DNA of 64,000 nt, taken from NCBI GenBank assembly GCA_017405765.1, contig JAFQZS010000007.1:9424-73423 (forward strand), written 5' to 3'. Source of the stretch: Clostridia bacterium. GTDB taxonomy: Bacteria > Bacillota > Clostridia > Oscillospirales > RGIG577. The translations under genes were made by a program, and so were the position numbers. Positions 4,941 to 42,541 of the stretch are shown piece by piece. The notes beneath the pieces were generated by a model. The model was given only the letters and a program-made list of their open reading frames with translations, ran no database searches and was not told where the DNA came from. Position 1 is the stretch's first letter. Each line of letters opens with the position of its first letter.

Positions 4941-7900
4941 TTATACGTCCGCGATATTCACCATTTCAAGCTCATGCGCCTTCTTGTCGAGCTTCAGACA
5001 CTCGACTACGGCGTTGGCCGTATCGAACGACGTAAGGCATACAACGCCGCGCTCTACCGACTTGCGGCGGATGCGCACGCCCTCTCTTTGGGGCTGTCTG
5101 CCGTGAGTCGAGGTGCTGATAACGTAATTTACCTTGCCGCTCTCGATGAAATTCAAGACATTGTCGTATTTGTCCTCGCTTATCTTCTTTACGCTGGTGG
5201 CGTCAATGCCGTTCTGACGAAGGTATCTCGCCGTACCGCCTGTGCCGTAGATCGCGAAGCCCATATCAACGAATTTGCGGGCAAGCTCGGGAAGCTCGGG
5301 CTTGTCCTTGTCTCTTATCGAGAAGAGAACGCCGCCGCTACTGTTAAGCTTATATCCGCTTGCCGTAAGTCCCTTTAAGAGCGCCTCGTCAAACGTGCGC
5401 GCAAGACCCAAAACCTCGCCGGTCGACTTCATCTCGGGGCCGAGCTGCGTATCAACGTCGTGAAGCTTCTCAAACGAGAATACCGGTACCTTGACCGCAA
5501 AATAATCGCTCTCTTTATATATGCCCGTGCCGTAGCCGAGGCTCTTTAACGGTTCGCCCAAGATGCAGCGCGTCGCAAGCTCTATCATCGGGATGTTCGT
5601 TACCTTGGAGATATACGGAACCGTGCGCGACGAGCGCGGGTTTACCTCGATAACATATACCTCGCCGTTATATACGACGTACTGAATATTTATAAGTCCC
5701 AAAACTTTCAGCTCTTTTGCAAGCTTGGCCGTATATTCGACTATCGTCTTCTTTATTTCGTCAGAGAGGCTGTACGCCGGATATACCGATATGGAGTCGC
5801 CAGAATGGACGCCGGCGCGCTCGAGATGCTCCATTATGCCGGGGATAAGAATGTCCTCGCCGTCGCTTATGGCGTCTACCTCGACCTCCTTGCCCATCAT
5901 ATACTTATCTATAAGTATCGGATGCTCCTGTACCTCGCGGTTTATAATGCCCATGAACTCCTTTACGTCGTCATCGTTGTAGGCGATGACCATGCCCTTG
6001 CCGCCCAGCACGTATGACGGACGCACGAGCACGGGATATCCAATATCGTTCGCCGCCGCGAGCGCCTCGTCAAGCTTATATACGCTTGCGCTCTTCGGTC
6101 TCGGTATGCCGCAGCGCTCAAGCACGCCGTCGAATATCTCTCTGTCCTCGGCCGCGTCTATCATATCGGGCTGAGTGCCAAGGATTTTTACGCCGGAATC
6201 CTTTATATGCTGAACAAGATTTATGGCCGTCTGACCGCCGAACTGTACTATCGCGCCGTCAGGCTTCTCCGTTTCGAGAATGGAAAGCACGTCCTCGCGC
6301 GTGAGCGGCTCGAAATAGAGCCTGTCGGAGGTGTCGAAGTCCGTAGATACCGTTTCGGGGTTGTTGTTTGCGATTATCGTCTCATATCCCAGATTTTTAA
6401 GCGCCCATACGCAGTGTACGGAGCAGTAGTCGAATTCTATGCCCTGGCCTATTCTTATCGGACCCGAACCGAATACGAGTATCTTCTTTTTATCGGAGGG
6501 GCGCGCCTCGTTGTCCTCGTCATATGTTGAGTAGTAATACGGCGTTTTCGCCTCTATTTCACCGGCGCAGGTGTCTACCATTTTGTATACGGGCTTTATC
6601 GGGGTCTTTATCTTTTCGCCGGAAAGCGCCTCTATCGTGCTGTCCAAAAAGCCCATCTTCTTTGCCTCGCGGTAAATGTTGGGCGTTAAAAGCTCTTCCT
6701 CAAGCAGGTATTCCATATTGATAAGGCCCTGGAGCTTGTTTATGAACCAGCGGTCCATCTTCGTTATATCGTATATTTCGTCGATCTTCACACCGCGTCT
6801 CAAAGCGGCGCAGATGTAGAATATGCGCTCGTCGTTGCACTTTTTAATGTCCTCGATTATATCGGGAAGCTCCATCTCTTCGATGTGCGGCATATACATG
6901 CGGTCAAGCTTTAACTCAATGCACCTTACAGCCTTCATAAGCGCCGCTTCAAAGCTGTCGGCTATGCACATTACCTCGCCCGTAGCCTTCATCTGCGTTC
7001 CGAGCGTTCTGTCGCCGTAAACAAATTTATCAAACGGCCATTTGGGGAATTTCAAAACGATGTAGTCTATCGACGGTTCGCTTGATGCGAACGTAGTACC
7101 CGTTACGGAGTTCTTTATCTCGTCCAAGTTATAGCCTATGGCTATCTTCGACGCGACTCTGGCTATCGGATAGCCCGTAGCTTTCGATGCAAGCGCGCTT
7201 GAGCGCGATACGCGCGGATTTACCTCGATCACGGCGTATTCAAAGCTGTCGGGATTTACGGCGAACTGTACGTTGCAGCCGCCCTCAACGCCCAAAGCGC
7301 ACACTATTTTGAGCGCCGAAGCCCTAAGACGCGCGCATTCCACGGCGGAAAGCGTCTGCGTGGGAGCAACTACAATGCTGTCGCCCGTGTGTACGCCTAC
7401 GGGGTCCACGTTTTCCATATTGCATATGGATATCGCGTTTCCCGCGCTGTCGCGCATGACCTCATACTCTATCTCCTTCCAGCCTGCCACGCACTTTTCT
7501 ATGAGTATCTGGCCTACGCGGCTTGCGCGGATGCCGGCTTCCGATATCTCTCTAAGCTGCGCTTCGTCGTTCGCGCGGCCGCCGCCCGTGCCGCCCATCG
7601 TATACGCAGGGCGCACTATTACGGGATATTCTATCTCGCCGGCAAATTCGACGGCGTCCTCTATAGTCGTTACGACCTTCGACGCGATGCACGGCTCGCC
7701 TATCTCCTCCATCGTGTCCTTGAATGCCTGGCGGTCCTCCGCCTTTCTTATGGTATCTACCTTTGCACCAAGCAGCTTAACGCCGTGTGCGTCAAGAAAT
7801 CCGCTTTCGGCAAGCTCTATGCTTAAGTTAAGTCCCATCTGGCCGCCGAGATTTGAAAGTACGGCGTCGGGGCTTTCTATCTCTATTATGCGCTTTAAAA

Positions 7901-18811: not shown

Positions 18812-21800
18812 TTGAAAAAGCTTATTCCATTTGTTCTCTTTCTTCTTATCGTTCTGTCGCTTAATGTGCAGTCGCTTGCTGAGGGCGTAAACAGCGGCGA
18901 TTTCGGCTCCGTTCACTGGTCGATGACCGAGACGACGCTTACCATAACCGGCACGGGCGATATCGTAAAGCCCGAGGACGGCTGGCCGTGGTACGAAAGC
19001 GACTACAATTTCAGAGACGTTAAGAACGTCGTCGTAGGCGAGGGCATAACCTCGCTTCCCGACGAGATCTTTTACCACTTTGAATCGATGACGTCCGTTT
19101 CCCTGCCGTCGACGCTCAAAAGCATAGGGCAGGAAGCGTTCAGGGGCAGCGGCCTTACAAAAATTGTAATCCCCGAGGGCGTCACCGATATAAGCGGCCT
19201 CGCCTTTTACCTCTGCGAGGATCTTACGGATGTGAGCGTGCCGTCTACGCTTGTTAATGTCGGCGGCCGCATATTTGCAAACTGCGGTCTTACGAATATT
19301 ACGATCGCCGATGGCACGACAACGCTTGGTGAGATGCCCTTCTACGGGTGCAACAAGCTTACCCGTATCCGTCTGCCCGGAAGTCTTAAATCTATAGACC
19401 GCGACTTTTTCAATGACTGCAAAAACATAGAGAGCGTGACCTTCGGCGAAGGGTTCGTAAGCATCGGAGACGATACGTTCAGATGGCAGCATGCGCTTTC
19501 GGAGGTATCTCTTCCCTCGACTCTTAAAACCATAGGAAGCGGCGCTTTTTCGTATACAGCCATAACGGAAATAAAACTCCCCAACGGCATTTCCGAGATC
19601 GGAAGCGGCGCTTTTTCCGAATGCAAAAGCCTTGTTTCGGCCTCTATTCCCGCCTCCGTTACGCAGGAGGGCCTCGGCGAAAACATTTTCCGAGACTGCA
19701 CAAGCCTTAAGTCCATAAATGTAGAAGCAAACATAACTTATCTTAAAGGCGCAATAAACGGCTGCACCGCGCTTGAAACCGTTTCTCTTCCGAATACGCT
19801 CACCTCTCTTTCGGCTTCCGATTTTGAAAAGATGACGAACCTTCGCCGCGTGGACGTAGCCGAGGGCGGCGAGAATTATTTTTCCGATGACGGCGTAGTA
19901 TATGAAAAGCGCGACTCCGGCCAAAGTATCGTATGCTATCCCGCCATGCGCGAGGGCGATACGTACGAGCTTTTGGAGGGCACTACGAGCTTTGGCTGCT
20001 CGTTTAAAGATCACCCCTATCTTAAAAAGCTTATACTCCCCAAGTCCATGACGAAGCTTAATGACTACGGCACATACCCGACGGGCTTTTCGGCAAATAC
20101 GATAACAGAGCTCGTGCTGCCCGACACGATGACGTACATTTACTCGCTTAAAGGCTTCAGCGCGTTGGAATCTCTCGATGTTCCAAGCAGCATAACCTCT
20201 TTCACCACTTCTGCTCTCAAGGACTGCGAGTCGCTTAAAAGCATCACGTTTTCAGATAAGCTCACTACGATATCGGCTTCCGACGGCGTAGAGCTTCCTG
20301 CGCTCAAAACGGTCACGTTTGCATCGCGTCCGCCGCAGATAAGCGACCCGTCCGCCCTTTTCCCCGGCGGAAAATCCGTTACCGTCCGCTATCCCTCTTA
20401 TCTTGAGATACTTTGGACGGGCACCGCATGGGACGACGCATATACGCTTGAGCCCTACATTGTCACCGGCATAATAGACGAGGGCGACTGGGGCGGCGAC
20501 GAGACCTCCGGTACGGTGAGCGGCAAACTCCACTGGACGGTGGACGCCTCCGGCGTGCTTACGATATCGGGCACGGGCACGATGAAGGACGGCGCCCGTT
20601 ACAGCAATATCGTTCCGTGGTATAAATGGCACGACATTATCACAAATGTCGTCGTAAAAGACGGCGTGATCTCGATAGGACAATACGCCTTTTACGGACT
20701 TAACGAAGCCCGTAAAATCGAGCTTCCCGAGGGACTGACTCTTATAAACAGCTTTGCATTCGAGGGCTGCACGTCGCTTGAAAGTATTAACCTACCCGCG
20801 TCGCTTACGTCTGTACGAAGTTACGCCGAGGAAAGCCCCGCCGCCGTATACTCGGTCGACGAGATGACTTACGCCCATATGTACGCGCTTGAAATGGGCT
20901 TAAACTTCGAATTAACGGGTCGGCGCGCCGAAGTGACCGTCATCCGCATCGAGCCTGCGGGCGGCGAACGAAGCGAGTCGCAAGTCGAGGCCGAGATAAG
21001 AGCAGCCATAGCTCCCAACCGCCGCGTGATCCTTGCGGACGGCATATATATGCTTCAAAGCACGCTTTATATGAGAGGCGTGTACGACTTCTCCCTTGAG
21101 GCGGAGAATCCCGGTATGGCCGAGCTTGTGCTGAGAGCAAACAACGCTCCCGTTATCTCGGCAAGCAACTCTCTCGACTACCCGAATTCGCTTCCCTGCC
21201 GCTTCATAAACGTCGACGGCCTTATAATGGGCCACGTTGCCGCAAGGAGCACCGCGGGGTGCGACGGCGAGGCCTACGTTTTCGAAGCGTTTGGCGTTCA
21301 CGATCTCACGGTCACCCGCTGCGATCTGTGGGGCTGCGGCGTCATAGGCTTTGCATTCAGCTCCTGCGACGGCGTGAAGGTAAGCGATACCGTCGTGCGC
21401 GACTGTATGAAAAACGCAGTCTTATCAACGAGCACCGAGGCGACCTTCACACGCTGCGTTTTCAGCGGCAACTCGTATTACAGCTACAACGGCAGTGAGG
21501 CGGGGCAGGCAAGCGATCAGACCTGCTTCAGGCTTTACAATTACCTTACTACTCACAAGCCGTCGTTCGTAGTGGAGGATTCGCAGATTTTCAATAATTA
21601 CTCGTATGCCCTTATAAACGAAAGCGGCCCGTATACCGAAGGTGAGATATTCAAAAACTGCTCCTTCTTTGATAACGTATGGCAGGAAAAAACGCCCCAA
21701 AATTACGGCGTATGCTTGGGCGGTCTCACGTGGCAGGTGATACAGGGAAGTTACGGCGCTCAGACGCTCGTCATCGGTCAGCCCATTGATCTTACCGTAG

Positions 21801-22183
21801 CCGCGATCCCCGGCGGCAGCGGCACTCTCCCCAATTACAGCACATGGAGCACGCCGTGGAAAAAGCTTCTTTCCCGCATAAGCGCCGTTAATTTGCCGAG
21901 CAACGCCTCGGTGACGCTTTCGCGTATTCCGGCGTCGGTCACCGTGACATATTCAGACGTTTCGGCGGGCACGTATAAAGCGGCCATCGCCGTTTACGAC
22001 CAAGAGGGACGCATGACGGGCTTCTCGATACAGGCTGTGACTATCGGTGAAGACCGAACCGTTTCGTTCGATACTCACGCGTCCGGAAAAAAGGGCACGT
22101 GCGCCGTATTCTTACTTGACAACAGCGACTACGCGCCCGAAACCGAAGCTATGCACATCGACGCCACCGGCAGCGCATCATAA
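18812..22183 (+). CDS. secreted cell-surface protein: BspA-type leucine-rich repeats, parallel beta-helix-like region, shared C-terminal module
   Basis: 1123-aa ORF with a TTG start and the signal peptide MKKLIPFVLFLLIVLSLNVQSLAEG. It has many ~23-aa repeats of the form L.SI.IP..V..IG..AF..C..L. A central region carries beta-helix-like repeats (VTRCDLWGCGVIGFAFSSCDGVKVSDTVVRDC...). The last ~82 aa resemble the C-termini of three other proteins in this window. Confidence 0.85.
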   Translation: MKKLIPFVLFLLIVLSLNVQSLAEGVNSGDFGSVHWSMTETTLTITGTGDIVKPEDGWPWYESDYNFRDVKNVVVGEGITSLPDEIFYHFESMTSVSLPSTLKSIGQEAFRGSGLTKIVIPEGVTDISGLAFYLCEDLTDVSVPSTLVNVGGRIFANCGLTNITIADGTTTLGEMPFYGCNKLTRIRLPGSLKSIDRDFFNDCKNIESVTFGEGFVSIGDDTFRWQHALSEVSLPSTLKTIGSGAFSYTAITEIKLPNGISEIGSGAFSECKSLVSASIPASVTQEGLGENIFRDCTSLKSINVEANITYLKGAINGCTALETVSLPNTLTSLSASDFEKMTNLRRVDVAEGGENYFSDDGVVYEKRDSGQSIVCYPAMREGDTYELLEGTTSFGCSFKDHPYLKKLILPKSMTKLNDYGTYPTGFSANTITELVLPDTMTYIYSLKGFSALESLDVPSSITSFTTSALKDCESLKSITFSDKLTTISASDGVELPALKTVTFASRPPQISDPSALFPGGKSVTVRYPSYLEILWTGTAWDDAYTLEPYIVTGIIDEGDWGGDETSGTVSGKLHWTVDASGVLTISGTGTMKDGARYSNIVPWYKWHDIITNVVVKDGVISIGQYAFYGLNEARKIELPEGLTLINSFAFEGCTSLESINLPASLTSVRSYAEESPAAVYSVDEMTYAHMYALEMGLNFELTGRRAEVTVIRIEPAGGERSESQVEAEIRAAIAPNRRVILADGIYMLQSTLYMRGVYDFSLEAENPGMAELVLRANNAPVISASNSLDYPNSLPCRFINVDGLIMGHVAARSTAGCDGEAYVFEAFGVHDLTVTRCDLWGCGVIGFAFSSCDGVKVSDTVVRDCMKNAVLSTSTEATFTRCVFSGNSYYSYNGSEAGQASDQTCFRLYNYLTTHKPSFVVEDSQIFNNYSYALINESGPYTEGEIFKNCSFFDNVWQEKTPQNYGVCLGGLTWQVIQGSYGAQTLVIGQPIDLTVAAIPGGSGTLPNYSTWSTPWKKLLSRISAVNLPSNASVTLSRIPASVTVTYSDVSAGTYKAAIAVYDQEGRMTGFSIQAVTIGEDRTVSFDTHASGKKGTCAVFLLDNSDYAPETEAMHIDATGSAS

Positions 22184-22210
22184 AGACAACGCATAAAATT
22201 TGATCCGAAG

Positions 22211-22236
22211 CCGCGTCCGAAAGGACGCGGTTTTTT
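22211..22236 (+). terminator. intrinsic terminator after the 1123-aa gene
   Basis: ccgcgtcc-gaaa-ggacgcgg followed by TTTTTT. Confidence 0.85.
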
Positions 22237-22287
22237 ATATGAAAATGAACATAACGCGGCAGTTTTGCCGCGTTATGTGATCCATAT

Positions 22288-23112
22288 TTATAAAAACAGC
22301 TCCGGCTCCTTTCTTTCGGCAAAGCTTTTCTCTATCATCCTTATATGTGAAAGAAAGTCGCCGTCGTCGAAATACAGCGCGCCTTCGGGGCATTTTTTCA
22401 CACAGGCCATGCATTTTATGCACGCGCCGACGACCTTCGGATGATCGTCCAGTGTCACTACTCCCATCGGACAGACGCTTTCGCACAAGCCGCAGCGCGT
22501 GCATTTTTCGGCGCGCACCTTTGGCGCGGCCTTTAAGAACTTCGCGGGCGCGCCGTCCTCTCGCAAAGGCGTGTAATACTTTTCCAGGCGTTCGCATCCC
22601 GGTACTGCTGCGGGCGCGATATCGTCCCCGCTTTTAAGTTTCTGCGCGATCTTACGGGCAAAAAGCGTAAGCCTACTCATGTCCGCCTCGTCGGGACGGC
22701 CCAAGGCCAGCGTATCCGAGAAGGCGTGGCGCGCCACGGCCGCGATCCCGGCCAAGGGCAGGCATCCGCCGTCTTTTATTATACCGCACATCTCACAAAG
22801 CGCATCGCCGAAGCTCCTGTTTCCGTACACCGCCACGGCTATAATATGCGCTCCGTCGCCTTTTATGGCTCCTTTAACGTATTCAAGCGTCTTATTCGGT
22901 ATTCTACCCGCATAAACGGGCGTCGCCCATACTACGAGCTCGTCTCGGCCAAATGAAAAGCCCTGCCTTCGTTCGTCCGGCAGCGTATAAGACGCCGTTT
23001 CATAGGGGACTTCCAATTCTGCGGACAAACGCTCGGCCAAAAGCTTTGCCGTCATCTCAGTCGCTCCCGTCGGGCTGAAATATACGGCCTTTATGATCTT
23101 AAAACGCCTCAT
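22288..23112 (-). CDS. flavodoxin-like domain protein fused to a 2x[4Fe-4S] ferredoxin domain
   Basis: ORF 22288-23130. The N-terminus KIIKAVYFSPTGATE is flavodoxin-like. The C-terminus has two CxxCxxCxxxCP motifs (CTRCGLCESVCP, CIKCMACVKKCP). Start at ATG 23112 after GAGGAAAAA. Confidence 0.8.
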   Translation of the reverse strand: MRRFKIIKAVYFSPTGATEMTAKLLAERLSAELEVPYETASYTLPDERRQGFSFGRDELVVWATPVYAGRIPNKTLEYVKGAIKGDGAHIIAVAVYGNRSFGDALCEMCGIIKDGGCLPLAGIAAVARHAFSDTLALGRPDEADMSRLTLFARKIAQKLKSGDDIAPAAVPGCERLEKYYTPLREDGAPAKFLKAAPKVRAEKCTRCGLCESVCPMGVVTLDDHPKVVGACIKCMACVKKCPEGALYFDDGDFLSHIRMIEKSFAERKEPELFL

Positions 23113-23126
23113 TTTTTCCTCGCTTG

Positions 23127-24242
23127 TCAATCGCTTACGTCCGTGTCGAGAACTATAGTTACCTTATGATCGGGATAAGCCCGTTTGACTTCATCGTATA
23201 TTTTTCGATAAAGCGCTTCGCGCTCCTTTACGGCAAAGTCTATCACCACATCGAACGTGATCGTTTTCTCGGCCTCATTCAAATAAAAGCCGTGCATTTG
23301 AAGTACGCCGTCGTGGGACATAACTGTTTTTCTTATCTCGTTTCTCATATTCACCGCACCCGTGTCGAGCGTATTCATCGAATATACGCCCACGGCCGCC
23401 ATTATAACGCGGTGCTTATCGTATACCTCGCGCGTTATCCTGCGTGTAAGCTCGTCTATGCGGGCGGCCGTCATCGTGTCGTCCACCTCGATATGGACGG
23501 AGCAGATATGCGTTTCGGGGCCGTAGTCGTTCAGTACAAGGTCATACGCCCCGTGTACCTCGTCGAAAGATGCGACTGTCTTTTTTATCGCAAGCGAAAG
23601 CTCGCTCTGCGCGCGTTCTCCCAATATCTGACTTATGGTGCTTCTAAGCATGTCTATGCCCGACTTTATAATAAACGCCGATATGACAGCGCCCAAATAC
23701 GCCTCTATAGACAGCCCCGTGAATATGAAAATTGCGGCGGCTGCAAGCGTGGAGGCCGATATTACGGAATCGAGCAGCGCATCCGCCCCGGAGTTTACGA
23801 GCGACTCCGAATTTACACGTTTGCCCGTGCGCTTCACGTGCATCCCAAGCGCCACCTTTGCGCCTACGGCCACGGCGACGATTATAAGCGAAACCGCGCC
23901 GTAATCGGGCGGCTCGGGCGATATTATTTTCTTTATCGACTCCACAAGAGACGTTATACCTGCGTAAAGCACGATGACCGATATTATCATCGCGCTTAAA
24001 TATTCGATGCGGCCGTAGCCAAAGGGGTGCTTTTTGTCGGGCGCTCTGCCCGAAAGCTTCGTACCCACGATGGTGATCACGGACGAGAGCGCGTCGCTTA
24101 AATTGTTCACGGCGTCCAGCGTGATGGCAATGGAGTTGGACATAATGCCCGCCAAAGCCTTGAATGCCGCAAGCAGCACGTTTACGACTATTCCCGTGAC
24201 GCTCGTTTTTATGATGGTCCTTTCCCTCAGATCCCGTTCCAT
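23127..24242 (-). CDS. cation diffusion facilitator (CDF) family metal efflux transporter
   Basis: 371-aa ORF. The TM region carries ITLDAVNNLSDALSSVI ... HPFGYGRIEYL, typical of CDF proteins, and is followed by a cytoplasmic C-terminal domain. Confidence 0.88.
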   Translation of the reverse strand: MERDLRERTIIKTSVTGIVVNVLLAAFKALAGIMSNSIAITLDAVNNLSDALSSVITIVGTKLSGRAPDKKHPFGYGRIEYLSAMIISVIVLYAGITSLVESIKKIISPEPPDYGAVSLIIVAVAVGAKVALGMHVKRTGKRVNSESLVNSGADALLDSVISASTLAAAAIFIFTGLSIEAYLGAVISAFIIKSGIDMLRSTISQILGERAQSELSLAIKKTVASFDEVHGAYDLVLNDYGPETHICSVHIEVDDTMTAARIDELTRRITREVYDKHRVIMAAVGVYSMNTLDTGAVNMRNEIRKTVMSHDGVLQMHGFYLNEAEKTITFDVVIDFAVKEREALYRKIYDEVKRAYPDHKVTIVLDTDVSD

Positions 24243-24263
24243 TTCAGTTCCCTTATCGAACGC

Positions 24264-24671
24264 CTATCCTATTATCTTCTTTGCAAATTCCGCCGCCGCC
24301 TTTAGATCGTCGGCGTTCGGCCTGCCCTTATGCATCGCTCCGAACGCGCCGCGGCAGTAGAACTCCTCCGCCGCCTGCGGTATATTCTTCTCCGAAAGAA
24401 GCTTCCCCACCTGCTTATACGTGGATCTCACGATGGCCGCAGTGCTGAAATTCACCGCCTTGCCCACTTTTACGTCTATGCCGCGCACGAAGCGCTTTAC
24501 GGCCTCGTCCACGCCGTGAGCATAAACTGCGCTTCCTATGAACAAAATGTCAACGTCCTCCGTAAGAGGCTCATCCATGCCGAGCGCCTCAACGCCCACG
24601 GCTTCGGCTATGGCAAGCGCAAGCTTCTTCGTATTTCCTCCGCGCGAATAATAGCGGACCGCAACCTTCAT
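24264..24671 (-). CDS. flavodoxin family protein
   Basis: ORF 24264-24689. MKVAVRYYSRGGNTKKLA is the flavodoxin FMN-phosphate loop. Start at ATG 24671. Confidence 0.75.
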   Translation of the reverse strand: MKVAVRYYSRGGNTKKLALAIAEAVGVEALGMDEPLTEDVDILFIGSAVYAHGVDEAVKRFVRGIDVKVGKAVNFSTAAIVRSTYKQVGKLLSEKNIPQAAEEFYCRGAFGAMHKGRPNADDLKAAAEFAKKIIG

Positions 24672-24743
24672 TTTAAAACCGCCTTTCATTTTTTTATTTT
24701 AATTTTACTATACTTTACATATTCCGTCAAACCGTGCGTCGCG

Positions 24744-24776
24744 CAAAAAAACGGAAGCAGCCTGTCTGCCTCCGTT
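24744..24776 (-). terminator. intrinsic terminator after cysK
   Basis: Minus strand: aacggaggcag-acagg-ctgcttccgtt (one mismatch) followed by T7, immediately after the cysK stop (24783). Confidence 0.8.
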
Positions 24777-24782
24777 TTTAGT

Positions 24783-25712
24783 TTATTCTCCGAAAAGCGG
24801 CGTCGAATAATATCTTTCCGCCGTGTCGGGCAGTATCGTCACTACGCGCTTTCCGGGGCCGAGCTTCTTTGCAAGCTTCAGCGCGGCGGCGACGTTCGTG
24901 CCGCTCGAAATGCCCACCATAAGGCCCTCCTCGCGCGCAAGGCGCTTGGCCGTATTTATCGCCTCGTCGTCGTTCACGACGTAGATGTCGTCGTAGATAT
25001 TGCGGTTTAAAATATCGGGGATTATGCCGTCGCCTATGCCCATCTGCATATGCGTGCCTATCGTGCCGCCCGCAAGTATCGCGGCGTTCTCCGGCTCTAC
25101 CGCCCATATAACAAGCTCGGGATACTGCGCCTTCAATACCTCGCCAATGCCCGTAAGCGTGCCGCCCGTGCCTATGCCGGAGCAAAAGCCGTGTATCGGG
25201 CCTGCCGCCTGCGCCATTATCTCAAGCGCCGTATGCTTTTTATGCGCCATGACATTGTTTATATTGGAAAACTGCTGAGGCACGAAAACTCTCGGATCCT
25301 TTTTCTGCATACGAAGCGCGGTATTTAAGCATTCCTCTATGCATGCGCCTATGTCGCCCGCGTCGTGGATAAGCTTTACGTCCGCTCCGTAGTGACGAAC
25401 AAGCTTTCTTCTCTCCTCGCTTACGGAGTCCGGCATTATTATTATCGTGCGGTATCCCTTCACCGCGCCCACAAGCGCAAGGCCTATGCCCTGGTTGCCG
25501 CTCGTCGGCTCGACGATTATCGTATCTTTATTTATAAGGCCGTCTTTTTCGGCCGCTTCTATCATGTTGAGCGCCGTTCTCGTTTTTATGGAGCCGCCCG
25601 CATTCAAGGCCTCCATCTTTACGAGCACTTCCGCGCTGTCCGGCTCGGGCATGCGGTTTAAGCGTATAAGCGGCGTATTGCCCACCGCGTCAAGAATGTT
25701 GTTGTATATCAT
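24783..25712 (-). CDS. cysK: cysteine synthase A (O-acetylserine sulfhydrylase)
   Basis: ORF 24783-25751. GNTPLIRLN ... NAGGSIKTRTA ... TSGNQGIGLA ... GIGTGGT are PLP-dependent CysK/CysM motifs. Start at ATG 25712 (MIYNNILDAVG). Confidence 0.92.
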   Translation of the reverse strand: MIYNNILDAVGNTPLIRLNRMPEPDSAEVLVKMEALNAGGSIKTRTALNMIEAAEKDGLINKDTIIVEPTSGNQGIGLALVGAVKGYRTIIIMPDSVSEERRKLVRHYGADVKLIHDAGDIGACIEECLNTALRMQKKDPRVFVPQQFSNINNVMAHKKHTALEIMAQAAGPIHGFCSGIGTGGTLTGIGEVLKAQYPELVIWAVEPENAAILAGGTIGTHMQMGIGDGIIPDILNRNIYDDIYVVNDDEAINTAKRLAREEGLMVGISSGTNVAAALKLAKKLGPGKRVVTILPDTAERYYSTPLFGE

Positions 25713-25876
25713 CGTCTTACTCCGTATGTTCACGCGGACGCCGAGCGTCATACGCGGCGTCCGCAGATTTTTTGCTGTAATATTATAACGATATCACCGA
25801 AGCGGGGTATTGTCAATGAAAATATGGGGGGTGAGGGGTGCGACTGATTATTTGGGTCAGATTGACTTTATTGGAA

Positions 25877-26617
25877 TTAACCAAGTCCCAAATGTGTTAC
25901 AACCGCTGCGCTAATTATAGCTCCAACTACTGCGGTAAAAATCGGGAATAAAATTTTCCACACAATTTTGCTTGTCAATTTTTCTTTTTGAGCAGCTGCT
26001 CTAGAGATATTTATGTTAAACACTATTCGATTGAGTTCTTCATTATTTGCTTCAATTTGTTCTGGCCTTTTACCTGAAATATCAATACCAAGTTTATCCA
26101 GATTTCCGTATTTGCTTTCAAGCTCTAACAAGGCCTGAATCATTAAGTGCTTCACATTAGCGCAGACATTCTGAAATACGGATTGGGAAATGATTTGCTT
26201 AATTGAAATACATTGCACTTCATTATTTGTGATTTCTGCAACATCACTAGCTAAATAACTTACATCCCTAATTGATGGACTGTTCGCAGATGCCAATTCG
26301 GATATATACCGAATTCCATCGTGTAAATCTATTCTTTTAAGTTTCTCGCGATGATTTTCTCGAACATAATACAGTGGCAATGGTTGATTCGTAACTTGCA
26401 AGCTTCCGTTTATTCCTGAATATTTAAGCTCTAATCCAGTTTTTCTGCGGTATTCTGGCAAGTCATCTGCGGTACTATATCCATTTAATTCTTTCTTAAC
26501 CCATCTTGCCAGCGTTTCATTTTTAACATCAACAGCAAGTATATATAATCTATTCAAGGATTGTTCAAGAGCAACTCTTTCCTCAACAATATCTTTAATG
26601 ATCTGGCTCTTGGGCAT
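25877..26617 (-). CDS. AbiTii-like domain protein with C-terminal transmembrane helix
   Basis: ORF 25877-26623, with the ATG at 26617 after GAGGTGA. The N-terminal pattern ...LARWVKKELNGYSTADDLPEYRRK... matches my recollection of the AbiTii (abortive infection) domain. The C-terminus WKILFPIFTAVVGAIISAAVVTHLGLG is a hydrophobic helix. The gene is low in GC. Confidence 0.55.
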   Translation of the reverse strand: MPKSQIIKDIVEERVALEQSLNRLYILAVDVKNETLARWVKKELNGYSTADDLPEYRRKTGLELKYSGINGSLQVTNQPLPLYYVRENHREKLKRIDLHDGIRYISELASANSPSIRDVSYLASDVAEITNNEVQCISIKQIISQSVFQNVCANVKHLMIQALLELESKYGNLDKLGIDISGKRPEQIEANNEELNRIVFNINISRAAAQKEKLTSKIVWKILFPIFTAVVGAIISAAVVTHLGLG

Positions 26618-26780
26618 ATACACTCACCTCATTTCAACTTCTCACACAGATGCAAGAGTTCTCTCAATCTGCGACAATGCGCTTCTCATCGGATATATTT
26701 GTCGCTTTTCGTTGTTATAATTTGTTATAGTTTTTGTAAATATATTTGCAAAACGTCTAGGATATTTATCTTAAACTGCA

Positions 26781-27365
26781 TTACTCCCAAAAATCAAGCA
26801 CAGATATCTCTTTATTGTTGTTTTTTTCCATTGAATCGTTTTCGGAAATTATATGAATGCGTATACTTCCATGATCAACTATAACCCAGTATGTTCGAAA
26901 CAGAATAACAAAGCAATTCAAATTACCCTTAAACGCAATCAATTCGTCTGTATCAATATCTAATAACACATCTCCTTTTCTTGACCTGGAAATAACATAA
27001 GTATACCTTTGCCCCATAGGGAACCGCACATCAAACATACTTGATTCGGTTTGTTGAAACCCAAAAAACTTATGCACACATGCAGCCGAATCCAATAACG
27101 CAAACAAATTATCCTTTGCTTCTTTACCCTCACATTCAAATTCATAGAATAGTTCTAAATAAGAAGTTATATCCACTTTTTCAAGTCTTTTTAGATAACC
27201 AATAATGGTTTTATTTACTGCATTTACTTCCTTTCCGCCAAATAACTCAAACGTATTATTAGGGTCATATAAACCTAAACGCTCCAATTCTTTTAACACA
27301 GCATTAAGTTTGTTTATTGTTAAAAATGCTGGGTATTTTCCCTTAGTAAAATATATAAAGCCCAT
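26781..27365 (-). CDS. hypothetical protein (no recognisable family)
   Basis: ORF 26781-27371 with RBS AAAGGAG upstream. It is low in GC like its neighbours. I recognise no motifs. Confidence 0.6.
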   Translation of the reverse strand: MGFIYFTKGKYPAFLTINKLNAVLKELERLGLYDPNNTFELFGGKEVNAVNKTIIGYLKRLEKVDITSYLELFYEFECEGKEAKDNLFALLDSAACVHKFFGFQQTESSMFDVRFPMGQRYTYVISRSRKGDVLLDIDTDELIAFKGNLNCFVILFRTYWVIVDHGSIRIHIISENDSMEKNNNKEISVLDFWE

Positions 27366-27578
27366 TATCATATCTCCTTTGTCTATGCACGGTCGTCCCT
27401 TTGCGGCATCTGCTATTTTTACATATTATGTCAACAATTTAACGATATTACCATTGGAGCGCAATGTCAATGCGCAGTATGGGGGCTTCGTTTTCGGGAA
27501 TCGAACGTTCTATCAGTTGCTTTCGTACTCCCGGTTATTATATAATCTCGCGTTACTTAATCATATCAGCTACGCACT

Positions 27579-28778
27579 TCAAGCATTGCCTTCTATCAGC
27601 CAATCGGCCACATCGACGATCTGCACGCCCTCATGCTGATAAGCTTCCTGTCGGGTGCGGGTAAGTATCATTTTGGGATATGCGTCCTTGATCTTTAGCA
27701 GCGGATCTATTTCGCGCCGGAAGGTGTCGGGGTCGTCTATGCTGCCGGAAACCTGTATATACAGCTTTTCACTTCGTTTTATTGCAACAAAGTCGATCTC
27801 CTTCTTATACAGCACGCCGGCATACAGCTCGTATCCTCGGCGCAAAAGCTCAATGGCAACGATATTTTCTATCATCCTGCCATGATCGGCGTTTTTCGTG
27901 CCCAGCTTCGCATACTTGAAGGAATGATCGCAAAGATAATATTTGTCATTCGACGAAAGATACCGTTTGCCCTGAATATCATATCTTCGGACCTTGTAAA
28001 ACGCAAACGCATTGCAAAGGTATTTTATATATGCGCTGACGGTACGATCATTTGTTTTTACATGCTCCCCTGTAAAGGCCGCGGCAACGCTGCGAGTGGA
28101 AGTCTGATTTGAAATGTTGTCTATTAGGAAATCGCAGAGGCGTTCCATCAAGGGCATGTTGCGCACGCGATATTTTTGCCGGATATCCCGAACGATCAAT
28201 GTATTGAACACATCGGAGATATAGTCATATTTCGATTCCGGCGTTTTATAAAGATAAGAGCCGGACATGCCGCCCTCACGGATATAGCGGTTAAAAGCGG
28301 CATATTGATCCGTAAGCGCGAAATACCTCATAAATTCCGCGAACGAAAAAGGAAAAACCTCTATCTCAAAGGTACGTCCCGTAAACAGCGTTGCAAGGTC
28401 GCTGCTCAAAAGAAAAGCGTTGGAACCGGTGATATAGATATCATATTTTTCGGATGCGTGCAAACTGTTGATAGCTTTCTCAAATCCTTTGCACATCTGA
28501 ACTTCATCTATGAAAACAAAGTTGCTTTTCCCCGGGATATAAGCCTTTTCAATATAATCATTCAGCGCATGATACTCTGTCAAATCCTCATACACATTTA
28601 GGTTAAAATTGATATGAATAATGCTCGCGTTCGGATCGTTGGCACGAACATAAGACATGAACGACTCCAAAAGCTTGGATTTTCCACAGCGTCTGACACC
28701 GGTAATTACTTTAATATCCGGAGTTCCCATCACATCTTTCAGTTTGTTCAGGTAGAAATCTCGTTCGATCAGCCGCAT
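27579..28778 (-). CDS. AAA+ ATPase of the COG1373 type (AAA_14 + DUF4143-like C-terminal domain)
   Basis: 399-aa ORF with RBS GAGGTGA 6 nt upstream. It has Walker A GVRRCGKSKLL and Walker B FVFIDEVQ. The N-terminal RDFYLNKLKD... and overall length are typical of this family. Confidence 0.8.
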   Translation of the reverse strand: MRLIERDFYLNKLKDVMGTPDIKVITGVRRCGKSKLLESFMSYVRANDPNASIIHINFNLNVYEDLTEYHALNDYIEKAYIPGKSNFVFIDEVQMCKGFEKAINSLHASEKYDIYITGSNAFLLSSDLATLFTGRTFEIEVFPFSFAEFMRYFALTDQYAAFNRYIREGGMSGSYLYKTPESKYDYISDVFNTLIVRDIRQKYRVRNMPLMERLCDFLIDNISNQTSTRSVAAAFTGEHVKTNDRTVSAYIKYLCNAFAFYKVRRYDIQGKRYLSSNDKYYLCDHSFKYAKLGTKNADHGRMIENIVAIELLRRGYELYAGVLYKKEIDFVAIKRSEKLYIQVSGSIDDPDTFRREIDPLLKIKDAYPKMILTRTRQEAYQHEGVQIVDVADWLIEGNA

Positions 28779-28807
28779 GGTATATCACCTCATCTATATT
28801 ATACCCC

Positions 28808-28854
28808 ATTCTATTTCGCAAAATCAATATTTTTTCAAAAATGCGAAATAGAAT
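28808..28854. promoter_or_regulatory. 13-bp perfect inverted repeat embracing the -35 region of the ATPase gene promoter
   Basis: attctatttcgca (28808-28820) pairs with tgcgaaatagaat (28842-28854) around a 21-nt AT-rich spacer. On the minus strand the repeat is followed by ggggTATAAT and then the RBS and ATG of the ATPase gene. A TTGATT -35 candidate lies in the spacer. Confidence 0.5.
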
Positions 28855-28981
28855 CGTCGGCCGCCTGCTGCGCGCATCAAAAGCTAGGCTTCAAACACCT
28901 CATAAGAGGCGCTGGCGGCAGCTCAAATCCTCGTTTTGCAAGTTCCTCTTCATTTTGCAAACGCAACCACGCGATCTTTGT

Positions 28982-39404: not shown

Positions 39405-42203
39405 TCAATTCTTATGTCGTTTGTTTAATACGTCCGCAATGGTTTTCTGCACCACCTTTATATCGATGGGTTTTGCGATATGTCCGTCCATGCCTGCTTT
39501 TTTTGCCGCATGAACATCTTCGGTAAAAGCATTGGCAGTCATTGCTATAATAGGGATACCCGAAAGCTCCACGTTATCGAGCGCGCGTATCGCTTTTGTG
39601 GCGGTGTAGCCGTCCATAACGGGCATTTGAATATCCATTAAGACTAGATCATACGTCCCCGGCTCGGAAGAGGTTATCTTTTCAACGGCTATCTGTCCGT
39701 TTTCAGCCTTTTCGACCTCAAAGCCAAGCTGCTCCAGGATCATGGTCGCAATTTCCATATTTATCATGTTGTCCTCTACAAGCAAAATATGCGTACCTGC
39801 AAAATCATAGCTTTCTTCATGAGTATCCGACATTGAAGCCTCGGAGATATCACCCTGTTCTGCCAGCCGAAGCTTTAAGCGTATTATCATTTCCGTTCCG
39901 CTTCCCGGAGCGGTCATAACCTCAATGGTACCTCCCATAAGATCCACTATGCTCTTTGTGATAGAGAGGCCCAGACCCGTGCCCTCTATACCGCTGTCGG
40001 TGGATGTGCGTTCCCGCTCAAAAGCATTGAACATCTTTTCCGCAAATTCCTTTGACATGCCTATGCCGTTATCCTGGATACGCATTTCATAAGAGCTGTA
40101 GCCGTCCTCACCGTTTCCTATTTCCCATAACGCAGCGGAGATCTCGCCTCCGGTCGGAGTAAATTTATAAGCATTGCCTATAATATTCAAAAGCACCCTG
40201 TTTAAGTTCTTCTTGTCGCACCAGACGTATCGGTTCTTCACTTGAGAGGTGTGTACGGCAAAACTTATCTGCTTCTGTTTCATCTGCTCCGAAAACAGAT
40301 CTCTCATACCATCGAATACCGCACACAGATCGGTGGGTATATATTCAAGCTCGATTTTTCCGCTCTCAATACGGCTCATCTCAAGAATATCATTTATCAA
40401 AGCAAGCAAATGCTGGCTGGAAAGCTCTATTTTCCCAAGGTATTCGTGTACATTCTTTGACGCAGGCTCCTTCAAAGCAAGGTTCGTATAGCCGATGATA
40501 GCGTTCATCGGCGTTCGAATATCGTGAGACATATTGAATAAAAATTGGCTTTTTGCAAGGCTTCCTTCTACGGCGCGTATCTTTTCGCGTTCTGCCGTCT
40601 CATGCTTTTTACGCACAAAATTCTGCACATACAGCATTACCGTCATACCGACAAAGATTATTATCATAAGTATTGCTCCGCCCCATACAAGAGAAGAACG
40701 CACTTCTTCCATACTTTCGGCGTAAACAATGCGTTTTGCAAGCCACATAAGCGAGGAATATATAAGCAGCGCGAACAGCACGACACCAGAAGTGGAAATA
40801 CCGCTGTATTCAGTCAATGTGCTGTGACGCACGGTGCGCCAGTAGAATACAAAACCTACAAGGCACCAAAGCGACAAGAGAAGAAACGCCCAGCTGTTCA
40901 TGGCTTCCATAGCCGTAAGCCTGGGAACGAGCTGCACAATGGCAAACAGAACGGAAACCGCCGTGCCTATTATGCCAAGCACGACTCTTTTGTTCTTTCC
41001 TTCTGTTTTTGCTATCTTCCATGCGGCGGCAGATGTGTATCCGAATCCCACGATAGCTCCGAAAGAGGTAATATCGACAAACCACGTCAGCGTGTTTCGG
41101 CCGAGAAATGCTATTATGATAGAGATCAGCATGATGAACAAAATACTGTAGGTCGTTTTTGAAAACTTCTCCGAAAGTATCTTGTCCTCCGCCATGGTGG
41201 ACAATATTCTCGTTGTGGCGCGATAACCTCCGATTATACCCGTCAATATTGCGGAAATTGCAGTTATAGCCATTATAAATATCCCCGCAGTGCCCATATA
41301 ATGTCCTGCGGCATAAAAAGTCGGTACTGCGGTGACTCCGCCAAGCGTATCTATAGAAGAAATATACTCCTGCCACGAATCGAAACCGTCAGGAACGGCA
41401 GCCACGCTCGTAATCGCCATGGACAGATAGGCAATAGCAGCTACGATGATCGAGAGTCCGATAAGAAGGCTTGACTTTTTTATCGGGAACTTAAAATGCG
41501 CCGTATCAAAGGATGTGACTTCGAAGCCGACAAATGCCCACGGTGCAAGTATCACAAGGCTGAAAACTGCGTATCCCTTGCTTACGCCGCTCGTTCCGAA
41601 TGATGTAAGCGCTCCGCTTGAAAAGGCATGAGGCAAACATATGACTGCCGTTATGATAACACCGGCAAGAAGCAAAAGCGCAAGGAGAGTATGGAGGCGC
41701 TGAAGCAGCGGCTTTGCCACTATGAAAAGAACGCCAACGCCGCCAAGCACAAGCGCCGACACAAGCGTCTCCGTGGGATATATTATGTTTCCCGCTATCG
41801 TATAGTGAAACTCTGTCTGCAGTGTGCTTCCAAGCAGCATCCTAATTATGTAGAACAGAGCAGTGCCGTTTAAGAATACGATAGTAAGATACGAAAGACA
41901 AAGAAACCATGAACTCAAAAAGGCATGATCGCGCCCAAAGGCTTCTTTCGTATATGAATATATGCCGCCCGTTATCGATGAGCGGCCCATGAGATATGAG
42001 AAATTGCTGCCTATTATCAACATGATAGCCATTCCTATGACCATGGCAATAAGCGTTCCGGCCGGTCCGGCAACAGGCAGGAACGTATTTCCGGGCATGG
42101 CAAACACACCCCAGCCGACCATAACGCCGAACGCCATTGCCCAAACGTCCAGCGGTGAAAGATACCTGTCCAGAGCTTTTGTTTTTTCCTGCTGTCCAAC
42201 CAT
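39405..42203 (-). CDS. APC-family permease-like domain fused to hybrid histidine kinase (HisKA-HATPase_c-REC)
   Basis: ORF 39405-42485, with the start set at ATG 42203 after AAAGGGGAGG (MVGQQEKTKALDRYLSPLDVWAMAFGVMVGWGVFAMPG...). This is the N-terminal signature of amino-acid/polyamine/organocation permeases. About 550 aa of TM helices follow, then the H-box FLFNMSHDIRTPMNAIIGY, DNGIGM...GTGLGL, and REC (ILLVEDN...LVLMDIQMPVMDG). Confidence 0.85.
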   Translation of the reverse strand: MVGQQEKTKALDRYLSPLDVWAMAFGVMVGWGVFAMPGNTFLPVAGPAGTLIAMVIGMAIMLIIGSNFSYLMGRSSITGGIYSYTKEAFGRDHAFLSSWFLCLSYLTIVFLNGTALFYIIRMLLGSTLQTEFHYTIAGNIIYPTETLVSALVLGGVGVLFIVAKPLLQRLHTLLALLLLAGVIITAVICLPHAFSSGALTSFGTSGVSKGYAVFSLVILAPWAFVGFEVTSFDTAHFKFPIKKSSLLIGLSIIVAAIAYLSMAITSVAAVPDGFDSWQEYISSIDTLGGVTAVPTFYAAGHYMGTAGIFIMAITAISAILTGIIGGYRATTRILSTMAEDKILSEKFSKTTYSILFIMLISIIIAFLGRNTLTWFVDITSFGAIVGFGYTSAAAWKIAKTEGKNKRVVLGIIGTAVSVLFAIVQLVPRLTAMEAMNSWAFLLLSLWCLVGFVFYWRTVRHSTLTEYSGISTSGVVLFALLIYSSLMWLAKRIVYAESMEEVRSSLVWGGAILMIIIFVGMTVMLYVQNFVRKKHETAEREKIRAVEGSLAKSQFLFNMSHDIRTPMNAIIGYTNLALKEPASKNVHEYLGKIELSSQHLLALINDILEMSRIESGKIELEYIPTDLCAVFDGMRDLFSEQMKQKQISFAVHTSQVKNRYVWCDKKNLNRVLLNIIGNAYKFTPTGGEISAALWEIGNGEDGYSSYEMRIQDNGIGMSKEFAEKMFNAFERERTSTDSGIEGTGLGLSITKSIVDLMGGTIEVMTAPGSGTEMIIRLKLRLAEQGDISEASMSDTHEESYDFAGTHILLVEDNMINMEIATMILEQLGFEVEKAENGQIAVEKITSSEPGTYDLVLMDIQMPVMDGYTATKAIRALDNVELSGIPIIAMTANAFTEDVHAAKKAGMDGHIAKPIDIKVVQKTIADVLNKRHKN

Positions 42204-42541
42204 AAATAAGGCCTCCCCTTTATTTGCCTGATTTGCGATTCTCGCTTTAGGGGCTGTATGTTCTTCATGACTCGATGCGTTTTTAAATACTATTAAAAGG
42301 GCTTCATCCTTGCCCCCCAACAGACACGCATATCTTTGTCCCGGATCTAAAAGCCAACTGTACGGTTTCTTTAAAATCATCCGAGCAAAGAGATTGCATT
42401 TGATCAAGCCATTATACCGCAAGCAAAAATGCTTGCTCGCAAAGGCATTTTTGCGACGTGATTCAATAAAGCGTGCCATACGCAAGTATGGCCGGCGCGT
42501 CCGCGCCGAAAGGCTGCTCTTTGGGCAGGCTTTACGCGCAT

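Follow-up and report, generated by a model that had tools for sequence, protein, structure and literature searches.

Three candidate defence genes, two of them in a low-GC cassette, upstream of cysK in a rumen Clostridia bacterium

We examined a 64,000-nucleotide (nt) stretch of contig JAFQZS010000007.1 from a rumen Clostridia genome (GCA_017405765.1), hereafter the window, and in particular three minus-strand open reading frames (ORFs) that stand upstream of cysK, between it and a gene of the PhzF family. They encode an ATPase, a protein of 194 amino acids (aa) that we refer to as p194, and a protein composed of an AbiTii domain and a predicted C-terminal transmembrane (TM) helix, referred to as AbiTii-TM (Table 1). 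A first-pass annotation had grouped the three genes as one low-GC island and candidate defence locus. A role in defence is plausible, and the reading of the three as a unit was not supported.

Each gene has its own ribosome-binding site (RBS), GAGGTGA ahead of the ATPase and AbiTii-TM genes and AGGAG ahead of the p194 gene, and the genes are separated by spacers of 213 nt (ATPase to p194) and 163 nt (p194 to AbiTii-TM), in line with the layout first described. The middle ORF had been read as 196 aa long. Its true start is probably the third codon (M3), owing to the 8-nt gap that then follows AGGAG, the N-terminus MG..Y of its family, and the gene call on the source contig; p194 denotes this shorter form.

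A two-gene cassette at the cysK promoter

The region of low GC content turned out to be a 1.6-kb cassette. Its GC content was 34.3%, against 53.7% in the left flank, 47.1% in the right flank, and 50.1% over the whole window, and the GC profile had sharp steps at ∼25.85 kb and ∼27.43 kb. A step at the first of these edges had been anticipated; the second falls within the island as originally drawn, and there was none at 28.86 kb, where its right edge had been placed. The single-line spot counts given in support of that island (19, 29, and 35 G+C) were exact. GC content at third codon positions (GC3) gave the same division. The AbiTii-TM and p194 genes had a GC3 of 0.281 and 0.284, respectively, ∼3.3 standard deviations (sd) below the window median (median 0.59 and sd 0.093, from 44 long ORFs). 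The GC3 of the ATPase gene was 0.515, ∼0.8 sd below the median and within the normal range of the window, similar to that of the signalling genes to the right of the locus (0.42–0.57). The compositional island consists of the p194 and AbiTii-TM genes, with the ATPase gene outside it.

Among 185,579 species representatives, the nearest genome was a cattle-gut Clostridia metagenome-assembled genome (L020), with a CysK that is 94% identical and ∼80% nt identity with the window. L020 is collinear with window positions 19397–25818. The similarity ends at the cysK promoter, upstream of which L020 has a CPBP-type protease gene and a HAD-like gene instead. The GC step and the synteny break hold for the extent of the cassette only, and it is this segment that appears to form a horizontally acquired islet. 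We conclude that the p194 and AbiTii-TM genes arrived at the cysK promoter region as one piece, probably recently and by horizontal transfer, and that the composition of the ATPase gene is host-like.

No flanking direct repeats had been noticed at first, yet the two-gene cassette lies between the copies of an imperfect direct repeat of 40 nt (70% identity), whose score was reached by only two out of 1000 shuffles of the two boundary regions. The downstream copy corresponds to the resident cysK promoter, and the upstream copy stands ahead of the p194 gene. The pattern TTGACA-N17-TATCGT occurs in the window at these two copies only, and a weaker similarity to the cysK promoter and leader reaches ∼100 nt in a three-way alignment. 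By this alignment, the sequence upstream of the p194 gene is a copy of the cysK promoter and leader that has diverged. With copies only 70% identical, the repeat is not a fresh target-site duplication. A speculative possibility is that the cassette takes a host promoter copy along when it spreads.

Two observations concern cysK itself. Its 5′ leader (window 25734–25764, minus strand) contains a perfect 10-bp GC-rich hairpin, GCGGACGCCG / CGGCGTCCGC, between promoter and RBS, and a different GC hairpin, also of 10 bp, occupies this leader position in L020 (about 2011–2033). The hairpin had no match in Rfam and may be a conserved leader structure. The cysK gene itself probably begins with the ATG at position 25712, not at 25751; its product then starts with MIYNN... 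and has 309 aa, the length in L020.

Table 1. Positions of the features of the locus, numbered along the window
Feature	Position	Strand	Description
Putative resident cysK promoter (downstream repeat copy)	25779–25818	minus	TTGACA-17-TATCGT, TG upstream of second hexamer; conserved in L020
Low-GC cassette	25846–27432		1.6 kb; p194 and AbiTii-TM genes; 34.3% GC
AbiTii-TM gene	25877–26617	minus	246 aa from its ATG
Predicted C-terminal tail-anchor membrane helix	25889–25972	minus	AbiTii-TM residues 216–243; hydropathy, alignment, structure model
AbiTii domain	26018–26617	minus	AbiTii-TM residues 1–200; Pfam/PADLOC match; model pLDDT >90
10-nt repeat unit	26712–26733		TTGTTATAAT, 2.2 copies; in the 163-nt p194/AbiTii-TM spacer
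p194 gene (196-aa ORF)	26781–27371	minus	26781–27365 from the M3 start, 194 aa
Putative diverged cysK promoter (upstream repeat copy)	27433–27472	minus	TTGACA-17-TATCGT; ahead of p194 gene
ATPase gene	27579–28778	minus	399 aa
Promoter-like site	28798–28827	minus	TTGATT-18-TATAAT, 10/12 consensus; upstream of ATPase gene; consensus match only
Perfect 13-nt inverted repeat	28808–28820, 28842–28854		ATTCTATTTCGCA / TGCGAAATAGAAT; arms 21 nt apart

The AbiTii-TM protein and its relatives

The AbiTii call, originally made from raw sequence, was borne out by profile searches (PF18864, E-value 3.9e-25, 89.6 bits against a cutoff of 27.6, residues 7–175; PADLOC AbiTii, 3.4e-26). Seven residues of the domain (W39, E43, G46, Y47, P54, Y56, and R57) were invariant across 36 aligned sequences; a conserved glutamate of the AbiTii domain has been noted before (PMC3710099). 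The single TM helix proposed at the C-terminus was also recovered, with a Kyte–Doolittle 19-residue maximum of 2.52 at residues 222–240. In an AlphaFold2 (AF2) model, residues 1–200 had a predicted local distance difference test (pLDDT) score >90, residues 203–227 formed a disordered linker, and residues 216–243 were helical. The model had no fold match in the PDB.

AbiTii-TM belongs to a subfamily of 244–248 aa proteins with 48%–64% identity to it and a conserved hydrophobic tail. The tail is kept in 25 aligned full-length homologs, with a small-residue-rich consensus (SKIAWNIxxPIITAxxGAxxGA). Short streptococcal and enterococcal AbiTii homologs (200–216 aa) are without a membrane tail, and in homolog P0028 (336 aa; 59% identity over the aligned 70% of the query), a weak match to DUF4145 (HEPN) replaces it. 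A tblastn search of AbiTii-TM against the INPHARED phages gave no match. The alignments and the model show an AbiTii domain on the cytosolic side, joined by a disordered linker to a membrane helix that is conserved at the C-terminus, and we read AbiTii-TM as a single-chain variant of AbiT.

Homologs of AbiTii-TM were found in six other contexts, all among defence or mobile-element genes: with GmrSD and DUF7669; with a type III restriction–modification (R-M) system; with a protein of two TM helices without a recognised family; with an integrase and a MobL relaxase; with an HTH-M78 protein with DUF4411; and with an nSTAND3 ATPase. No neighbour was conserved among these contexts. Small genes adjoining AbiTii homologs (162, 168, 192, 223, and 389 aa) were unrelated to p194 and to each other by pairwise and profile comparison. 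Such changing neighbours are the pattern of a self-sufficient gene in defence islands.

We compared this architecture with those of known systems. The AbiTii domain is described as an N-terminal alpha+beta domain of ∼180 aa that is fused to HEPN domains in other bacteria (PMC3710099). The fusions of the c2405 and Ymh families share with AbiTii-TM this N-terminal domain followed by a C-terminal effector module, as well as neighbourhoods of defence and R-M genes; however, the C-terminal element is a single membrane helix here and not an RNase domain, an architecture that is not listed in the same survey. The lactococcal proteins AbiP, AbiC, and AbiZ are likewise single polypeptides with a cytosolic domain and one or two TM helices, but they have no sequence relationship to AbiTii-TM, in which the anchor is C-terminal and the soluble domain is AbiTii. 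The AbiP anchor is essential, and AbiZ is thought to raise membrane permeability (PMC13064643).

Based on this architecture, the AbiTii domain would sense a phage product, after which AbiTii-TM would oligomerise through its small-residue-rich helices and perturb the membrane, aborting the infection with an effector supplied in the same chain. Other AbiTii proteins instead have a fused HEPN domain or a separate partner such as lactococcal AbiTi.

The likeness to AbiT of Lactococcus lactis pED1 extends to the AbiTii domain, the W...ELNGY...LPxYR motif, and the conserved glutamate of the 246-aa protein, and at the level of the locus to a small upstream gene on the same strand, low GC content, and the appearance of horizontal acquisition. 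Two differences stand out. AbiTii is fused here to a C-terminal membrane helix, and no AbiTi homolog was recognised, p194 having matched no profile and, by Foldseek, no PDB structure (PADLOC may lack an AbiTi model, and p194 was not compared with the AbiTi sequence). The essential hydrophobic tail of AbiT reportedly lies on AbiTi, as described by Bouchard and colleagues in 2002; if this holds, the membrane element may have moved into the AbiTii chain. Lactococcal AbiTi is a predicted endoribonuclease (PMC13064643), and AbiTi of Coprococcus catus was toxic in Escherichia coli and was not neutralised by AbiTii (PMC3985639).

Several plasmids carry other arrangements of the domain. On the Enterococcus faecium plasmid pBN83-1 (3001–4198 of locus L106), the gene for a short, 208-aa AbiTii overlaps the 192-aa gene behind it, which encodes a protein with an N-terminal TM helix, and the pair adjoins DUF262, methyltransferase, and type ISP R-M genes. 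It is possibly a two-gene module of AbiTii and a membrane partner, distinct from AbiTi/AbiTii, and hints that AbiTii comes with a membrane element, be it within one chain or on a partner protein. On a Lactococcus lactis plasmid (NZ_CP042409; 2091–3900 of locus L105), a 299-aa protein has an AbiTii domain and, behind it, ∼110 C-terminal residues without an assignment; its gene is divergently paired with a TIR-domain gene. A match on a Lysinibacillus plasmid (H24) also overlaps a TIR-domain annotation.

An orphan protein family and a catalogued ATPase

The 196-aa protein had been reported as lacking any recognisable motif, and indeed, with a limit of E ≤ 1, searches of Pfam, PADLOC, NCBIfam, and PHROGs gave p194 a DED hit below threshold and nothing else. 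An exhaustive HMMER search of 1.84 billion proteins yielded a family of 18 cluster representatives; a word-index homolog search returned only a 99%-identical fragment, and a family alignment search only 10 proteins. With a five-sequence alignment, relatives were absent from the GTDB species representatives and from IMG/VR, and four loci were found in metagenomes. No match was obtained by tblastn for p194 or the prophage member P0058 against INPHARED phages, or for p194 against PLSDB plasmids. The family shares the motifs PxFLTF, GEEAKDNLxxLLD, DxRFPxGK, and IDTD, and no member matched Pfam or PADLOC. In the AF2 model of p194 (pLDDT 79, predicted template modelling score 0.75), the N-terminal half is helical and the C-terminal half is a six-strand beta meander, with no fold match in PDB or BFVD. 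We conclude that p194 is a cytosolic protein of a rare orphan family.

Some members have additional parts. P0050 has an N-terminal Cys-rich region matching phrog_14556, followed by a TM segment and then the p194 domain; we rejected this match as an annotation of the family, since it stems from the unrelated N-terminal extension and the p194 domain has no part in it. In P0051 a TM helix lies at the C-terminus, making P0050 and P0051 membrane-tethered members, and P0042 has an extra C-terminal domain of ∼150 aa without a match.

The family was observed in five contexts outside this locus, in all of which its gene stands alone. It was found beside a DUF6062 gene among housekeeping genes; beside an aminoglycoside phosphotransferase gene and a gene that we take to be a transposon-encoded TnpV by its likeness (with an IS30-type transposase near a second copy of the locus); as a 340-aa form between recG and marR; in a prophage, in the order ImmA, a 186-aa member (p186), a MazF-like gene, and integrase; and in a second prophage, in the order CI repressor, a 182-aa member (p182), and serine recombinase. 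The family gene was lower in GC than its flanks in all contexts with flanking sequence (five out of five), and in two out of five it lies between a repressor or ImmA gene and an integrase gene.

This position is that of genes expressed in lysogeny. Lambda rexAB and the lactococcal sie genes, which exclude incoming phage or abort its infection, are likewise found in prophages between repressor and integrase, and typical superinfection exclusion (Sie) proteins are membrane proteins. Two p194-family members hold the same position, but there is no homology to rexAB or sie, and most family members are without a TM segment. By its position, p194 would be a prophage-derived superinfection exclusion or defence factor, working on its own. 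In the immunity region of the L018 prophage, several candidate toxin or defence genes are stacked, a p194-family gene included; the next sizeable gene past it (5908–6645), located after a 37-aa ORF and just before the integrase gene, encodes a 245-aa protein with a PemK/MazF-like domain (1e-09).

The cassette might also be decaying or neutral cargo acquired horizontally, for example, a fragment of a prophage immunity region, and have no part in defence. In that case p194 would be a lysogeny-associated regulator, which its relatives beside prophage repressors would suit as well; AbiTii-TM would have another role in the membrane; and the insertion, flanked as it is by the cysK promoter and a copy thereof, would be incidental or mainly alter cysK expression. 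The 64-kb window held no other defence genes, which fits this view. We nonetheless regard it as quite unlikely: neither ORF is disrupted, and each has a strong RBS and the conserved motifs of its family; AbiTii-TM homologs recur among restriction–modification, GmrSD, STAND, and toxin–antitoxin-like genes; and the AbiTii protein that founded the family is part of a system whose anti-phage activity has been demonstrated experimentally (PMC13064643).

The combination of genes had been thought not to match a named system, whereas the ATPase alone is a full-length member of the named PADLOC candidate PDC-S01 (PDLC04787; 2e-148, 492.7 bits, residues 2–396 on profile positions 9–408 of 412). Its assignment as a Walker A/B ATPase of the DUF4143/COG1373 type was upheld (Pfam AAA_14, 2.9e-32; DUF4143, 1.3e-17). 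The AAA_14 P-loop domain, in which GVRRCGKS is Walker A and FIDE is Walker B, is followed by DUF4143 and a C-terminal PD-(D/E)XK-like region, and the nuclease-like character proposed for this C-terminus agrees with the literature, in which PDC-S01 is described as an ATPase fused to a domain of the PD-(D/E)XK superfamily (PMC12988326, PMC3424549). E304, E327-x-D329, and Q342 of this region were invariant in six sequences (the ATPase and five plasmid homologs). The third nuclease motif is Q-x-S/T and not (D/E)-x-K in all six, so that nuclease activity is not readable from the sequence. A sequence search of solved structures gave no related structure.

PDC-S01 is a single-gene phage defence candidate that was proposed from guilt-by-embedding, with validation pending (PMC12988326). 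In bacteria of the rumen, and also in archaea, the family is very common; no other individual candidate locus is as frequent in rumen genomes, the count being 10,358 occurrences in 6530 genomes (PMC13356809, PMC12988326). We identified homologs of the ATPase on 238 plasmid records, annotated only as "ATP-binding protein," where they were standalone genes with varied and unrelated neighbours. With the same domain order, intact Walker A and B motifs, a standalone gene, and no notable difference, the ATPase is an ordinary member of this catalogued family, with nothing new about it. By analogy with other ATPase-nuclease defence proteins, it would link the hydrolysis of nucleotides to the recognition or cleavage of foreign nucleic acid.

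One system or independent parts

A tblastn search of all three proteins against 104 loci found them together only on the source contig. None of the six AbiTii-TM contexts and none of the five p194-family contexts outside this locus had either of the other two genes. This bears on the original suggestion that the three genes make up a new three-component system, with the ATPase-nuclease, p194, and AbiTii membrane effector acting together. Adjacency, a shared strand, and some link to defence for all three genes speak for it. We consider it very improbable, as the trio co-occurs nowhere else, the composition of the ATPase gene differs from that of the other two, the ATPase family is a single-gene candidate that occurs alone tens of thousands of times, and the genes have spacers of 163–213 nt and an RBS each. 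Lack of co-occurrence in other genomes had been listed at the outset among the results that would speak against the trio, and as this is what we observed, we regard the three-gene system as largely refuted.

Instead, owing to the domain calls, the two-tier composition, the synteny break, the promoter duplication, and the varied contexts, we favour the reading of the locus as a small accretion of three independent single-gene defence candidates, to which we assign a probability of roughly 0.6.

Several points weigh against this reading. The p194 and AbiTii-TM genes share their extreme composition and their strand, we looked for a terminator between them and detected none, and the two, having arrived together, may be co-transcribed, which fits an operon as well as mere co-transfer. 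In canonical AbiT, too, abiTii is preceded by a small gene, the two forming an operon, a layout as seen here. By analogy with AbiP, the TM helix of AbiTii-TM could be a plain anchor and not an effector. The p194-family contexts sampled are few (five) and distant (at most 57% identity), and prophage immunity regions make up only two out of five of them. A defence role stays a candidate one for all three proteins, and for the PDC-S01 family anywhere.

The main rival, by virtue of the shared origin and operon-like layout of the two genes, is an AbiT-like operon of two genes, p194 and AbiTii-TM, in which p194 would be a non-homologous replacement of AbiTi (a sensor, regulator, or second effector) and the ATPase an unrelated neighbour. 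Their common outlier GC3 of 0.28 and location in one 1.6-kb cassette bounded by the promoter repeat are consistent with such a pair, as are the position of the best promoter-like site upstream of p194, the small gene upstream of abiTii in canonical AbiT (PMC3985639, PMC13064643), and the overlapping 192-aa partner gene of the short Enterococcus faecium plasmid AbiTii. On the other hand, the p194 family had no AbiTii neighbour in five contexts and AbiTii-TM no p194 relative in six, a p194-family profile found nothing among the neighbours of AbiTii genes, and p194 had no PADLOC match. The 163-nt spacer, the strong RBS of the AbiTii-TM gene, and the candidate effector already present in the AbiTii-TM chain also argue against the pair. 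On balance, we find the operon unlikely.

Within the reading as independent parts, a stronger version is that the cassette carries two new single-gene immunity modules, with p194 founding a prophage-associated family of anti-phage or superinfection-exclusion proteins and AbiTii-TM being a self-contained AbiT, with sensor and membrane tail in one protein. The AbiTii domain would then be portable as a phage sensor, with RNase or membrane effectors under its control. We put this forward tentatively, as an idea that we consider unlikely.

Other features of the locus and the window are as follows. The lower arm of the 13-nt inverted repeat upstream of the ATPase gene overlaps the promoter-like site of that gene, making it a possible operator; promoter-like sites in the region were no more frequent than in its shuffles. 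The 10-nt repeat between the p194 and AbiTii-TM genes may be an operator or a weak promoter element. It was the only repeat found in the spacers, in which we detected neither an RNA antitoxin-like repeat array nor an Rfam match. As first stated, there is no tRNA gene in the 64-kb window and no integrase gene within 6 kb on either side of the locus. No further PADLOC match of note was found in the window; a single weak match to SduA falls on a receiver domain and was rejected. The flanks encode signalling and housekeeping proteins. Within a block of hybrid kinase and GGDEF/EAL genes (29.9–42.5 kb) with a GC content below the rest of the window, a minus-strand gene (39405–42485) encodes a 1026-aa protein with AA_permease_2 (residues 109–527), HisKA, HATPase_c, and receiver domains. 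It is a fusion of a transporter with a hybrid histidine kinase, which is unusual for a sensor.

Overall, this is an ordinary small defence islet with a catalogued ATPase and a member of the known AbiTii family. Three elements are mildly new: the AbiTii architecture with a membrane tail, p194 as an orphan family that is also seen in the immunity regions of prophages, and the promoter duplication at the two ends of the cassette. Adjacency and defence-like domains do not make a system, and per-gene GC3 and neighbourhood checks split the island into its parts. The ATPase is one more example of a candidate family that is pervasive in the rumen. If p194 is active, a new family would be added to prophage-encoded immunity. 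If AbiTii-TM protects alone, the AbiTii domain would serve as a phage-sensing module whose effector can be exchanged (a HEPN RNase, a separate AbiTi, or a membrane helix), and AbiTii-TM would give a simple handle on the mechanism of AbiT, a system known since 2002.

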